NCBI GenBank assembly: GCA_964106645.2
Contig: OZ067047.1
DNA: 64,000 bases
Reading direction: 5' to 3' (one strand)
Source of the DNA: Podarcis pityusensis
Lineage: Eukaryota
In this document: piece after piece, positions 16-47,984 of the stretch
Numbering within the stretch: position 1 is the first letter of the stretch
Layout: each line of letters begins with the position of its first letter
Made by a program: the position numbers and the translations under genes
The notes under the pieces: model-generated
What the model was told of the DNA's origin: nothing
The model's input: the letters and a program-made list of their open reading frames with translations, nothing else
The model's database searches: none

Positions 16-403
16 TGTCACAGTCTGGTTCACGGGCGATCGGAGTCCCGGCAGGGGACGTCAGGACTGGGGGCAAGATGGTGGGGTGGGAGCAGGAATG
101 GGGGTCCACAAGCCAAGAGTCAAGAAGTCAAGGGTCCGAGGATCAAGAAGCAGGGAGTCAAGAAGCCGAGATTCAAGTATCAGGAAGCAAGAAGCCAAAC
201 CCAGCAAGGCTGGAAGCGTGTTGCTATGGCAAAGAGCTGAAAGGAAATGCTGACCTTATAACCCTTCCCAGCTCTTGCCACCAGGTGCTGTGAGTTACCA
301 ATCAGCCTCACCTGTGTGGCCACGCCTTGCCTCTTCAGAACAAGTCCCAGTCCTGCAAAGTCCTATTGGTCACATGGCCTGGCTCTTGCACGCACACCTG
401 ACA
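16..403 (-). mobile_element. Solo LTR (Gypsy-like), 388 bp
   Basis: TGTCA...TGACA termini; perfect 5-bp TSD CACTA (11-15 and 404-408); CCAAT and TATAA on the - strand; internal degenerate tandem repeats (CAAGAAGC units). Confidence 0.85.
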
Positions 404-6212: not shown

Positions 6213-18516
<12,304 letters not shown>

Positions 18517-18574: not shown

Positions 18575-19023
18575 CTTTGCTGGATTACAACCAGCTGTTT
18601 GTGGGGTCAGTCAATGACTGCAGGTCAGTTGCTTGGCAGGACATTTGTAATGTGCTGGACAAGGACCCGTCAATTTGTGTAAATACTGCAATCTGTTACA
18701 ACATGGATGGGGAACTGGTGGCCCTCAGGATGCTGTTGGACTCCAACTCCCATCAACCCCAGCCAGCATCGCCAATAGCCAGGGATGCTGGGAGTTGGAG
18801 TTCAGCGACATCTAGGGGACCACACGTTCCCCACCTCTGCATTAGAACACTCAAACAAGGGAGTGATGGAGGCAGGTAGTAGCAGTGCATGTGGTAGAGC
18901 TTGACGCTGGTGTGGTTGCTTACCTGAATGGGGCTGAGGTGCCAAGAAGGGCGAGACTGTGCAGTTGCACTGACAGGAGTGCTGGACCAGCAGGGATGCT
19001 CCCACTGGTGCAACCACCCTACC

Positions 19024-19742
19024 TGTGCTGGTCCCGGGGGGGGGGGAAGGTACTAATACCGTAGCCGAAGTTCAGTCCAGAGTCACTAGCAGGGTAGACA
19101 ATCACTAGATGAGACGCGAGGTCCGAAACAGGGAGCCGGGCGGGGGAGCAGGAACGCTGGTAGGGCAGCAGCAGGAAGCCAGGCGGGTAACAGGAACACT
19201 GGTAGAGCAGAAGCAGGGAGCCAGGCGGGGAACAGGAACACTGGTGGGTCAGCAGCGGGCAGCTGGTCGAGGAACAGGAACACCGGAGAGTCAGGAGCAG
19301 GAAGCCGGGCGTGGAACAGGCACACTGGGAGTGCAGATCTAGGTCTGGGTAAAGCAGGTACTCCACAACGACGTTGCTCCCGCAACCTGGGACCGGGCTG
19401 CCTGACCTTTATCTTCTTCTAAGGCCCCGCTTGGCCTTAAGGCGAGCACTCCTCCTGGGAGAGACCAGTTCCCTTCGCCTCTCTGCCCTAAGCCTCTGCA
19501 GTTCAGGAGAGGCCGAAGGGTTACTGGGCCCCGGGGGAGGCTCACCTGTAGCCACTGAGTCCTCCAGCACCTCTGGGGCCAGAATGGTCTCACTTGGTGC
19601 CTGCCCCTGAGGATCTGGCACAGGTGCAGGCTCCTCAGCATCTAGGCCTTGCCCCAGTTCAGCCGGCCCTGGAGGCGGGGACTCCTGTGCCAGCTGGGAT
19701 TCCTCCGGTTCACTCTCAGACTCGGAATCCCAGGCCATCACA
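19024..19742 (-). mobile_element. Solo LTR (Gypsy-like), 719 bp, upstream of nothepsin
   Basis: TGTGCTGG...CCATCACA inverted ends; perfect 5-bp TSD CTACC (19019-19023 and 19743-19747); TATA-like GATAAAAGG near 19405-19413 on the - strand; GC-rich; internal 42-bp tandem array. Confidence 0.85.
19130..19330. repeat. 42-bp minisatellite (about 5 copies) inside the LTR
   Basis: Repeating GGAGCCAGGCGGGGAACAGGAACACTGGTAGGGCAGCAGCAG-like unit, also visible as a 14-aa period in ORF 19109..19342. Confidence 0.8.
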
Positions 19743-20214
19743 CTACCCCAACCTCGCCACTATCGCCCTGCCCCAGTGCTCTCCAAATAAGGAGCAGTGA
19801 CAGAGGTGGATTTAGGGAAGCGCGACTGGTTCACCCACACTAGTGAGAGGGGGCTGCAGGGGGCTGCAACAATGACTTATAATGAAAATCGAAAAATGTG
19901 GATGGGGGTGCCAATTTTTGTTGTGTTGCGCAGGGCGCCGTTGAAATTTGAAAGTCTGCCTCTAGCAGACTGCGTTGTAAGGAGGTTGGCTATGTCTCAC
20001 CACACATGCCTTAAGAATAATGAGTCTTTTTCAGTGTGGACTAAGTAAGTATAAACCAGGTCTTACCATGACCCAGGTCTTCATAGGTGAACCTATGCAA
20101 TTCAAAGCACTATAGAAAGATGCAGGGTAAATGGGCTCATCTGAAATATTCCACACCATAACAAGCAATTTGACCTTTCCTTATGTCACCTGGGTTTTCT
20201 CATTAGCTATTACT

Positions 20215-22921: not shown

Positions 22922-23752
22922 ATGGGCAACGCTTTCCGAACAGTCATTGCTTTCTTCCCATCAGATGCCTGCCAGAAATACATTCTGGGAGACCTTGAAG
23001 AGATGCCAATTGATAAAATGTTGGATCTGAGCAGCAGGCAGGTGAGGAGGTTCCCGCTGCACGTTTGTTCTTTCAGGGAACTGGTCAAATTGTACCTGAG
23101 CGACAACAATCTGAATCATCTGCCCTCTGAGCTAGAACAGCTGCAGAACCTACAGATCTTGGCACTGGATTTCAACAATTTCCAAACGCTTCCCCCGGTG
23201 GTGTGCACCTTGAAGCAGCTGTGTATCCTTTACCTGGGCAACAACAGACTTGGAGACTTGCCAGTAGAGCTGCGCCAGCTGCAGAACCTGAAGACACTCT
23301 GGATTGAGTCCAACTGTTTGTATCACCTGCCCAACGTGGTGTGCGAGTTGAAGCAACTCAAAACGCTGCATGCCGGCTCCAATGCGCTGCACTCCCTGCC
23401 TGCGCAGCTGTGGTACCTGAAGGACCTGCGCAGCATCTGGCTCTCAGGCAACCTACTGCCTGAATTCCCCCCCGTGTTGCTTCACATGCCATTCCTGGAA
23501 ATTATCGACGTCGACCGCAACGTCATCACTTACTTCCCCAGTCTCGTGCACCTGAGCAGCTTGAAGCTGGTGATCTATGACCACAACCCCTGCAGAAACG
23601 CACCCAAGGTAGCCAAGGGGGTGCATAGGGTTGGGAGGTGGTCTGAGGAAAGCCCCGAACCTAGGAAACGATCTGGTATGGATAGGGACAAAGGATCTGA
23701 GGACATCGACTCTATTCTCCCTCCTCCAGGCCATCTCAGTCTAGCCGAGTGA
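22922..23752 (+). CDS. LRRC10: Leucine-rich repeat-containing protein 10 (single coding exon), 276 aa
   Basis: Intronless ORF starting MGNAFRTVIAF, with tandem LxxLxLxxNxL repeats and C-terminal YDHNPCRNAPKVAKGVHRVGRW; tail-to-tail with CCT2 as in other amniotes. Confidence 0.95.
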   Translation: MGNAFRTVIAFFPSDACQKYILGDLEEMPIDKMLDLSSRQVRRFPLHVCSFRELVKLYLSDNNLNHLPSELEQLQNLQILALDFNNFQTLPPVVCTLKQLCILYLGNNRLGDLPVELRQLQNLKTLWIESNCLYHLPNVVCELKQLKTLHAGSNALHSLPAQLWYLKDLRSIWLSGNLLPEFPPVLLHMPFLEIIDVDRNVITYFPSLVHLSSLKLVIYDHNPCRNAPKVAKGVHRVGRWSEESPEPRKRSGMDRDKGSEDIDSILPPPGHLSLAE

Positions 23753-28400: not shown

Positions 28401-31400
28401 GGTACATATGATTGTTCTGTCCAACACTGAGCAGCAAAACCTACCCATGGCAACTCCAGAGAAATGAAGAAGTTTATCTTCACCAATCATGACTTCTTCA
28501 ATCAGCTTGCAGCTTCCTAGCTTCACCAATTCTGGATGGTCAAAAGTTGAAGCAATTTCACCACCTGAGAATGAATGCAACTTTGTGTTAGCCTTTTCCT
28601 CCCACAAGTGTAAAATAGTTTTAGTAACTGTTTACTTAGTAGACATACGAACCTGAACTTTGAAAAGAAGCTTTTATGAAAAGAAGTATGAGCAGATGTT
28701 CATCAGTCTCTGTCTCTGTCTCTCTCTCTGTGTGTGTTTTGTTTTAAAGAAACTACTATGCTAATATGCCACTTTTCACCTTAAATTATGGAGACATCCT
28801 CACTATCATTGTGCAATTTTTAAAAAAAAAATGTATTGGTAGCCACTTTCAGCTCTCATAGTTGGCCCGCAAACAGCAAAGAAGCTGGGTTCTGTGTAAC
28901 TTTCCTGAATAGCTAAGAAAGAAATCAGATTTACAATATGTTGCAAAAAAAAAAAAAATGAAGTGTAGGAGTACGAGTTCAGATCCTTTGTTCAATGGAT
29001 GGTACTTTGCCATCAAGGTAAGGTATTTACTATGTGATTCCTGGTTATTAGTGGCATGTTTTTTCTGGTGCTGCTGATTTACTTTTATTATGCAGTTGTG
29101 TTGTTTTTTGTTTTTTTTACTGTACCACATTCTGGGATCCCTTGTGCAACAAAAGGCAGGTTAAAAATAATTCTGTACCTGTAACAAGAGCTAGACGTTC
29201 AACTCCAGCAAAATCTGCATGTTCAATAGCCATAACACCAGCAGCAGCAAACATCTGTTCTGGGTAGTTATAGATCAATTGCCTGTAATAAGAAAAGGTG
29301 CTCATAATAACGTGGCAGGAAACATAACTTAATTTATCCCAGCAAAAACTTCCATAGTGCTTAACAGTACAATGATTTTTAAACATTGCGTATTACTTTA
29401 ACTGTTAACGACTAGTAACCAAGGTTTTGTTCTTGGGTTCAACAAGCTTTCACCCATGGTATGGCATGGCAGCAGCAGCAGGTATGAGGAAGGAGTGATG
29501 TGGGAATTTCTGAGCACCTTGCACCAACATGCTGTTTGCTCACACTAAACTACAGTTTGTTTTAAGCAGTGGTTTAAGGTGATGTGTGAACTGTGCCACT
29601 ATGTAGTTACAGGCTTGTCAGCAGAGGCTCTGAAGAGTCAATCAGCATGTTCCAAACATCCCTCAGCATAATGCATACCTGTTGATAAAGCAGTTTATTC
29701 CATGCTTCAGAATACGTTCAACCTTCTCCTTCATTTTCTCTTTTTCTGCTTGTTCAATTTCTGCCACCTTTGCTGTGGAATCCACTCTTACACGGGAGCC
29801 AAATATCTAAGAAATAAATATGGCAATATTAAGCAATAGCTCAAGTGCTTTGACTACACTACGATTTGCACCACAAAAATTACTTACCTTAATTTTATCA
29901 GTATCCATGCCAGTATTTGCAATAAGGATTTTTGCATTTTCAATCCTTTTTGGCTGGTTGACTCCAATTTTTTTATCCAACAGAAAACCTAAAATGAAGA
30001 AGAATCAGACAGGATTATCGGGCATATTTTATGAAACTGAACAGGTTGCCTGAGTCTCTTTTCACTCAAACAGTCATAGGAATAGATTCAACACTTAGTT
30101 GAATAAAACAAAGCGGTATTCCCCCCAAATCATATGAAGCATCAAGGAACACACAGGGCAGACCAAAATGAAACAGCAATAGAATCCGAAGATACTTAGC
30201 TTCTTAAATGTAGATAATTTGAGGCTACTTCAGATGCTTAATTCGTACAATACTTTATGAAGTGACCCAAGTGCATAAGTATGAAAAGGTTTCTCTCAGA
30301 ATGGGCAAACATTCAGTTTACATAGGTAATCCTGTGATTAAAAACCATTCAGGAAGCAATGCAAACATGATCCACTTACGTTTCACATCTATGGAAATAG
30401 CTTTCAGAGGCCCTTCTCTGCATGCAAAATATTACATCGGAACTTGCCTTCAAAATTTTACCAAGGCTAATAGAAACATACAAATACTGGCTGAACTAAT
30501 ATATCACAGTAAGCCATAACCCATCTTGTTCCTTCCATTTTCAGCACTATATCTGAACCAGTGATTGTGTTTGTTTCGCTCCTACAAACCATGAGCCGTA
30601 AGCAAAGAAGAAAATTTGGTTACAGATCAGTTTATTTAGAGTGAAACAAACTATGATCCCTGGTTTGGGCATAACACTGAGACAGGAATTGTGAGCGATT
30701 TTTCTCCCAGTGCAAGCCTGCAGGAATAAAGTAGGCACTATTTTGTTTGTGAACACTGTGTTATGGCTTACATGACAGCAAACAATGTTTTTTTAAATGG
30801 CTTAGTGGAAAGCCTGCTATTTTATCTTCATAGTAAGCAATGACAAGGTTCCTTGCTATGACATAATTTACTGAATTGTTACCAGTAAGCAAAATTATAC
30901 CTTCATCCAAGTAGGAGTCTATTAGACTTCCTCCTAGTTTCTTGATGATATGAATAGCTTCCAGATTACCAGATCCCTTCAGCCTAAGGACAGCATCTAC
31001 TGCAAGTTTTGCAAAGTGATCTTTATGATGAGTAAGCAATTTTGAAGAGAGTGTGGTTTCTGCAATATTCATTAAGTCTTTGTGAAATGAAGCTTCATTT
31101 CCCCTGAAAAGCAGAAAAAGTAAACTTAAAAGCACATCTTGGATCACTAAAATATATGGCCTTGATCCAGAGAACCATACAGCAAAGTTCTGCATATAAT
31201 TGCAAGGCTTCTGACACTCCACTTTCGAACAACAACCACCCACCTACACCAACCTAACAAGCCGCTACCCAAACTTGGAAGACATTATCTTCAAGTGTTA
31301 AGAACAAAAATACTGTAAGCCCTGGCAAATGCCTAATAGCATGTCCTGCACTATTTGTATCTTAGAAGAATGTAAAACTGTATTTTCACATAAAGATGTC

Positions 31401-46994: not shown

Positions 46995-47984
46995 TCACAT
47001 AGGCAGGTCAGTACTATTATGTCTAGTTTTCCTAGAAGTACCGTCGTCACGTGGCAGTGCTTTCTGCAAGCTTGACATAGCAGCTGTTCTTTCAATGTCT
47101 ATCACAGCATACAGCTCTGTGCGCCTGGTTGGAGTCTGTGGAAGTGGCGTGGTAGGAGTTTTTGGAGTCTGAGGGTTGTCAGAGTCACTGCCACCTTCCA
47201 AATCAACCTGTATATAATTGAGCTGCCTGTGTTCTGAACTTGGTCGCCTAATATCAAAGTTAAAGACCGTTGGGGTACAGTCCCGGCGTCTTGCATATTC
47301 TACTTTGTGAGCACTTGATGGCACCGTCACATTCTCTGTATTGACATAATTATGCATGGGGTCTAAATTATTGTGATAGCCATTCAGAGATGGTGTCTTT
47401 GGTCCTAAACTGTCATCCTCCTCTTTACTTAACTTGTGGGCTTCCCAAACTGGAGGCAAAGATGGCAGGTTTTCATAATTTAGCAATGCAGTTCTCCTCT
47501 GAGCGGAATTGTTGATATTCTGGGTATCAGAGGTACTGGATGATATCAGACGACCTCTCCTGAGTCCTGGGGCACCAGGAATAGACAACCTATTTACATT
47601 TTCATACGCTATTTTGTTACCAGAGGAAACTTCTTTGCGTTCGTCACTGTCGTACCCAGTGTCCCATTCATTGTTACTACTCGCACTAGCTTGAGTACTG
47701 TTGGCACTAGTTTCAGTACTGTTTCCACCACCTTGAGTACTGTTCCCACTGGATTCAGTTTTTTCTTTTTCCATTAACTGCCTCTGGACAGGCGTTGGAC
47801 CCAAAACAAATTTGACTCCTTCAGGTTCCAGTACGACCTGGGCATCTCTATCATCTGGACAAGTTTCATCTTCCCTTGCCTTGCTTGTTTCTGCATTAGA
47901 AACCCTTCGCTCCAGAGGTGTACGCACACTTGGCCTGTTTTTTCTTTCCTCCTGTACACCTGTTGTATTCACATATGTATGGAC
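46995..47984 (-). CDS. FRS2: FRS2 terminal coding exon
   Basis: VHTYVNTTG...TRHNSTDLPM*; 990 nt. Confidence 0.96.
   Translation of the reverse strand, partial: VHTYVNTTGVQEERKNRPSVRTPLERRVSNAETSKAREDETCPDDRDAQVVLEPEGVKFVLGPTPVQRQLMEKEKTESSGNSTQGGGNSTETSANSTQASASSNNEWDTGYDSDERKEVSSGNKIAYENVNRLSIPGAPGLRRGRLISSSTSDTQNINNSAQRRTALLNYENLPSLPPVWEAHKLSKEEDDSLGPKTPSLNGYHNNLDPMHNYVNTENVTVPSSAHKVEYARRRDCTPTVFNFDIRRPSSEHRQLNYIQVDLEGGSDSDNPQTPKTPTTPLPQTPTRRTELYAVIDIERTAAMSSLQKALPRDDGTSRKTRHNSTDLPM

Follow-up and report, generated by a model that had tools for sequence, protein, structure and literature searches.

Does a solitary long terminal repeat (LTR) in a lizard genome encode a protein of its own? 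The question is raised by a locus within 64,000 nucleotides of Podarcis pityusensis DNA (GCA_964106645.2, contig OZ067047.1; this whole stretch will be referred to as the window), where an open reading frame (ORF) lying inside an LTR ends in RRSARL, a motif that recalls the nucleosome-binding HMGN proteins. The initial annotation saw in it an intact U3 gene for a chromatin-binding accessory microprotein, spread through the genome by solo LTRs. We have followed up this proposal by comparing the LTR with its copies in the same genome, with the full-length elements to which it belongs, and with related elements of other species.

The solo LTR and its parent family

The features of the locus are the following:

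19024..19742, minus strand: solo LTR of 719 nt, TG...CA, subfamily A of a young Ty3/gypsy chromovirus (end-to-end matches; paired copies flank gag-pol)
19019..19023, strand not given: 5-bp target-site duplication, one side
19743..19747, strand not given: 5-bp target-site duplication, other side
19409..19738, minus strand: U3 reading frame, almost certainly an orphaned C-terminal Pol/integrase tail, with an acidic, Pro-rich linker followed by a basic end
19439..19456, minus strand: RRSARL codons (residues 95-100), with an HMGN-like RRSAR core
19408..19413, minus strand: TATA-like GATAAA box of putative function, about 30 nt upstream of the predicted start
19374..19383, minus strand: 10-nt stretch able to pair with the primer-binding site of full-length elements; a predicted self-primer, coinciding with the predicted RNA 5' end
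19129..19336, strand not given: tandem repeat with a 42-nt unit (4.9 copies), within the LTR's non-coding half

The perfect 5-bp duplication on both flanks identifies the 719-nt TG...CA element as a solo LTR, as originally annotated. The 109-aa ORF is equally real: it begins with an ATG 4 nt inside the LTR end, lies on the minus strand (19738 to 19409), and its stop codon overlaps the GATAAA box, as had been noticed; a plus-strand reading was rejected, as it is interrupted by stops. The product is polarised in the way first described, with an acidic, Pro-rich N-terminus (net charge -18 over residues 1-80) and a basic end (+12 over residues 81-109). On the other hand, the term "intact" is adequate for the open ATG frame but not for the last residues. 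The window copy is 31 nt shorter than L004 just after the motif, differing otherwise by 4 substitutions, and this private loss accounts for its altered end: GLRRR directly after the motif was found in 1 of 40 LTR matches, the window copy alone. The likeness to HMGN is also partial, as the RRSAR core is present but the full consensus RRSARLSA is absent, the tail reading RRSARLKA; no Pfam family, HMGN included, matched the ORF at E-values up to 10. Exact RRSARL arises in shuffled sequences with a frequency of 1.2e-4 (whole ORF) or 2.3e-3 (last 30 residues), in what is a post hoc test, and it occurs once across the six frames of the whole window.

The surroundings include an old LTR of another chromovirus family (window 16-403, minus strand; 72-73% to L219/L222), in which the pol stop comes right after the chromodomain. 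Nearby host genes are represented by an aspartyl protease exon (11087-11392, minus strand), a single-ORF leucine-rich-repeat protein (22922-23752, plus strand) and a TCP-1 chaperonin exon (30761-31195, minus strand). An exon at 46995-47774 (minus strand), without a Pfam match, resembles the C-terminus of an FRS2-type adaptor.

A search with the LTR in its own genome yielded 1519 candidates, 40 of which were scored; all 40 span the whole query, at 94-100% identity. Eight LTR pairs flank full-length elements, with 5-bp duplications that are perfect in seven of them and carry one mismatch in the other. Since the paired LTRs of these eight elements differ by 0-6 substitutions, the family is very young; more than 100 of its copies bear the chromodomain, with near-identical LTR pairs. 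The full-length elements encode Gag and then Pol, the latter comprising protease, RT, RNase H, integrase, SH3_Tf2-1 and Chromo (Pfam). The chromodomain (PF00385, E 7e-15) occupies Pol residues 1084-1131, at the integrase C-terminus, with its aromatic-cage residues present, and the best PDB match of Pol is Ty3 Gag-Pol (E 3e-137). No env was found in the full-length elements, whose annotation gives gag and pol only; together with the presence of the chromodomain, this led us to reject an endogenous retrovirus identity. Judged from the domain order, the chromodomain and the primer-binding site of the full-length elements, the LTR belongs to a Ty3/gypsy chromovirus of the Tf1/Sushi type. Members of this group (V-clade Sushi-ichi, Amn) have in common with the lizard family gag plus PR-RT-RH-IN-chromodomain, no env found, and 5-bp target-site duplications.

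Among the subfamilies, B (L105-L110, L113, L122) holds gag and pol in one 1623-codon frame, and in A and C (e.g., L031-L038) gag and pol mostly form two overlapping frames. A large share of the older chromovirus matches lies on one 38-Mb contig (C19), as expected for a repeat-rich, possibly sex-limited chromosome.

Reading frame and transcription start

The ORF had been taken as a separate gene filling U3, with the suggestion that it might extend into the internal region of full-length elements. Such an extension is indeed seen, and it removes the separate gene, as the upstream open frame is the end of pol. Three of the eight full-length elements hold a single stop-free frame of 1270 codons from the protease to the ORF stop; past the chromodomain, the pol frame crosses the polypurine tract (PPT) and then continues for 117 codons inside the 3' LTR, so that about 135 residues lie beyond the chromodomain, 117 codons of which are LTR-encoded. 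Among 51 distinct elements, found by LTR or chromodomain similarity (hence young) and taken without any frame filter, the frame is kept from the chromodomain to the motif position in 42, lost before the LTR in eight, and one has an in-frame deletion of the motif. Since the pol frame is continuous with the ORF in those 42 elements, the ORF is almost certainly the C-terminal tail of Pol/integrase, and not a stand-alone gene. As for the LTRs themselves, exact RRSARL lies in an open frame in 35 of the 40 matches, and one 12-residue end is common to 37 of them. The closest database proteins come from Podarcis muralis (84-90% identity), and a UniRef Pol of this species (P0002) carries the same tail.

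Three Podarcis gene models (P0003, P0031, P0035) fuse the LTR tail to gag or to a host domain, and are probably annotation artefacts. In this sense, the thousands of lizard LTRs holding a ready-made ATG frame of about 116 codons, which seeds false gene models, are a warning for annotators; read as a solo-LTR microprotein, the finding would be an ordinary remnant.

The position of the transcription start is also relevant. The sequence following the 5' LTR includes a 10-nt complement to LTR position 390-392 (window 19383 downwards), a site that follows the GATAAA box by about 30 nt and the stop (LTR position 355) by 26 nt. This complementarity between primer-binding site (PBS) and LTR, as a sequence signature, is present in nine out of nine young elements from four subfamilies, and two elements of a distant lineage possess different 10-mers, also complementary, at the very end of their pol frames. 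It is absent in L187, the one old D element assessed (L188 could not be oriented). The tail-less sister family has TATATAA at a place comparable to that of the GATAAA box. In the Tf1/Tj1 type of self-priming, the PBS pairs with the mRNA 5' end, according to passages of PMC4600332, and self-priming is described for the Tf1/Sushi group in parts of PMC6317226; an LTR-complementary PBS, as in self-priming, is thus shared by this group and the lizard family (PMC6317226, PMC4600332). We infer that LTR-initiated RNA would start downstream of the ORF, about 26 nt past its stop. With such a start, the full genomic RNA would carry U3 at its 3' end alone, and U3 would be translated only as the end of Pol. 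No sequence set recorded as RNA matched; among those presumed to be RNA, four sets of contigs include the LTR, and in two contigs the chromodomain is joined to the LTR start, contigs being material from which start, strand and level cannot be read.

These data bear on the possibility that a separate chromatin-binding accessory protein of about 116 aa is made from solo LTRs or a subgenomic RNA, starting with the ATG at the LTR edge. That ATG is found at LTR codon 2 in nearly all copies examined, several other squamate tails have a V-M pair in the corresponding position, some Podarcis gene models start with the ORF, and a host promoter lying upstream could include the ORF in read-through transcripts. 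Nonetheless, the ATG belongs to the terminal TGTGATG, supplied by the LTR end anyway; plant CRM LTRs likewise start with TGATG, as mentioned in sections of PMC3059260. Furthermore, the predicted RNA start lies downstream of the stop, so that a solo LTR would not express the peptide from its own promoter, and the window copy has a privately altered end.

The fate of the frame in old copies points in the same direction. Thirty copies of the older subfamily D, the query included, were chosen by their non-coding half (in a parallel D sample, solo-type duplications were seen in 16 of 30). Nine of the 28 full-length copies are frameshifted and 14 hold the motif in an open frame, and across the 30 copies 11 of the 16 coding indels have lengths not divisible by three. 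There are 73 private replacement changes, against 63 expected from synonymous rates (N/S 1.16), and purifying selection after insertion, as for a host-retained gene, was not seen in these D copies. Host selection had been considered from a within-D pN/pS of 0.59; this value was discounted because those copies were chosen by protein score, and the idea was rejected, as the sample obtained via non-coding DNA gave 1.16. On these substitution patterns, old LTR copies decay neutrally, a statement on subfamily D as a class and not on each copy, among which one co-opted copy may exist. With the frame being the end of pol, the start predicted downstream and the old copies decaying, the accessory microprotein spread by solo LTRs finds no support, and we consider it very improbable.

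Selection on the tail and recurrence of its motif

As the end of Pol, the tail can be compared between subfamilies. In comparisons limited to 60 pairs each, drawn from 36 copies of equal length without interruption, dN/dS between subfamilies A, B and C amounts to 0.08-0.15 in integrase, against 0.45-0.65 in the tail. Differences between A and C are distributed 8/8/18 by codon position; the non-coding half of the LTR shows many non-triplet gaps. A pattern search for the PPT/LTR start (11 matches: seven unrelated, four of the family) provided the route to the older subfamily D, sampled at 30 loci with two duplicates dropped. Net pN/pS of the tail is 0.51 (0.30-0.91) for A-D, 0.46 (0.25-0.88) for B-D and 0.62 (0.39-1.04) for C-D; the intervals for A-C, B-C and A-B also include 1, as is the case altogether in four of the six pairs, which are not independent. 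The middle linker has a pN/pS near 1; in the basic helix, the A-D and B-D pairs show three differences, all of them synonymous, and the sole inter-subfamily indel measures 10 codons. Overall, these ratios indicate moderate purifying selection on the tail from one subfamily to another, with pN/pS around 0.5. The dN/dS below 1 and the frame-keeping indels that the initial annotation proposed to look for are therefore found between subfamilies, but not within old LTR copies.

The motif itself is kept as RRSAR in all subfamilies, the RRSARLK codons being identical in A, B, C and most D copies (A2 reads RRSARF). Across A, B, C and D, these seven codons are without synonymous differences and practically free of replacements, so constraint on the protein cannot be distinguished here from constraint on the promoter or DNA. 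The adjacent SPRR, regarded at first as a CDK site, is not conserved: subfamily C has APRR in its place, and most D copies have SLRR. This pattern bears on a second alternative, in which the tail, although made along with Pol, binds no particular partner, being a tolerated read-through or a generic basic end for nuclear localisation or DNA binding, RRSARL being kept as U3 promoter DNA about 60 nt upstream of the TATA-like box. Motif codons without synonymous change are compatible with it, as is the low dS that several of the pairs show in the basic end, and Ty1 integrase has known basic C-terminal nuclear signals (according to titles of works referenced in PMC3605345). The adjoining helix, with its exclusively synonymous differences in A-D and B-D, argues against it.

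Further information comes from the tails of other chromoviruses. Other lineages in the same genome also read through the LTR start into acidic and then basic tails. Strict RRSxRL is absent from their tails (30 loci, and 17 further ones, some unrelated), and one family of this genome lacks any tail; chromoviruses as a whole can thus do without the motif. The same tail layout appears in proteins from Rhineura, Vipera, Crotalus, Naja, Salvator and Anolis, although many database tails are gene models, possibly spliced artefacts. Many lizard and snake tails have R/K-rich ends without the motif, which again suits a generic basic end. Among 138 non-family single-chromodomain proteins, 51 have a tail of at least 40 aa, and two of these (Anolis P0199 and P0111) carry the strict motif, both at the tip. 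Two tails with dissimilar linkers thus have RRSAR[LI] among their final 15 residues; this speaks against a generic end, a reading which we hold unlikely but worth keeping in mind. In P0199, the chromodomain is followed by GDSVM, a linker unrelated to the Podarcis tail (shuffle P 0.59) and the end RRSARIAAK. Shuffles expect 0.14 strict-motif tails against the two observed; the motif was in the query of both searches that yielded them, and, as these searches favoured motif-bearing proteins out of 5406 and 1163 matches, the shuffle P-values make the result look more significant than it is. P0111 may be such a chance promotion (a metagenome scan for its relatives gave 421 pattern matches, none confirmed), and the Anolis case weighs more, among about ten squamate tails. 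The presence of the motif in related LTRs, on which the initial annotation depended, is thus true of all the subfamilies and of an Anolis tail, but not of the other lineages in the same genome.

A second abundant lizard chromovirus lineage (L046-L071, L123, L124) has a strongly acidic tail of about 200 aa with Trp/Phe repeats, which crosses the LTR start and ends in R-rich and C-W-K/S-R motifs; its chromodomain lacks some of the cage aromatics.

A candidate chromatin anchor on integrase

From the biological point of view, the preferred reading is that pol runs into the 3' LTR and that the basic RRSAR end is probably a second chromatin or nuclear anchor on integrase, rather than a separate protein. 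Pol, including its LTR-encoded tail, would be translated from the full genomic RNA, the tail being made only as the Pol end; the chromodomain would read methylated H3, and the flexible acidic linker would let the RRSAR arginines reach the H2A/H2B acidic patch, both contacts together tethering the integration complex to chromatin. RRSAR corresponds to the HMGN2 stretch resolved on the acidic patch, and the variants of Dsup (RRSSR) and Dot5 (RRSARI) also bind, as described in parts of PMC11741339 and PMC12871379; in foamy virus Gag, loss of chromatin binding redistributes integration sites, according to passages of PMC9040877. A complex prediction of tail residues 76-109 with host H2A/H2B gave a score of 0.03, on a scale uncalibrated for peptides, and counts neither for nor against binding. 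Specific binding of the tail to the acidic patch is a tentative proposal, to which we give less than even weight, a generic nuclear-localisation or DNA-binding role taking most of the remainder. Slightly more doubtful still is a two-point nucleosome reader on the integrase of some squamate chromoviruses, combining the methyl-lysine-reading chromodomain with an LTR-encoded, HMGN-mimicking RRSAR on a long acidic tether that has been kept or re-evolved across lacertids and Anolis. Thus, of the original chromatin-binding idea, the separate protein is lost, and what persists is a coding frame, selected during element replication, whose RRSAR recurs in a distant squamate tail.

The tail resembles HMGN, Dsup and Dot5 in its three-arginine RRSAR core and in what is probably a disordered protein with acidic and basic halves. 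The acidic part of HMGN is C-terminal, a polarity opposite to that of the lizard tail. A reading frame covering U3 is also known from MMTV sag and lentiviral nef. These are separate genes with their own mRNAs, unlike the lizard U3 frame, which is continuous with pol. The arginine-rich chromatin tethers of foamy virus Gag, KSHV LANA and CMV IE1 may be likened to the tail (PMC9040877, in part), but they sit on Gag or on DNA-virus proteins, whereas the candidate lizard tether sits on integrase; in the available text of that review, the words "retrotransposon" and "chromodomain" are absent.

With respect to the Tf1/Sushi group, the lizard family has about 135 extra residues after the chromodomain, and in most of the relatives retrieved (fish, frog and fungal-type) the protein ends or diverges soon after this domain. 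A pol frame reaching into the 3' LTR is shared with the plant CRM group A and with beet Bingo, and in CRM-A the LTR-encoded part is a presumed chromatin-targeting module (both from portions of PMC3059260 and PMC3605345). CRM-A has a CR motif instead of a chromodomain and a tRNA-Met primer, whereas the lizard family has a true chromodomain before the PPT and a self-complementary PBS, its LTR adding an acidic linker and the RRSAR tip. No such tail or motif was found described in the literature on RRSARL, HMGN or the acidic patch together with retrotransposon integrase, at the level of titles and abstract beginnings; nor was the tail found, among the matches listed, in that on squamate chromoviruses, vertebrate Sushi pol overlap or Podarcis LTR elements. 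In the text available from PMC12159745, the acidic patch is confined to a reference title. Hence, pol entering the 3' LTR is already known from plant chromoviruses, and a vertebrate LTR-encoded integrase tail with an HMGN-like end was not found described in the literature covered.

As judged by comparison of its copies, a very young family has an integrase tail that is encoded by the LTR, is under selection and ends in the HMGN/Dsup nucleosome motif. If the two-point reader is true, a retrotransposon integrase would bear an acidic-patch tether, something not found described in the literature searched; the corrected reading can in any case be tested, and bears on the way in which vertebrate chromoviruses select or retain their sites of integration.
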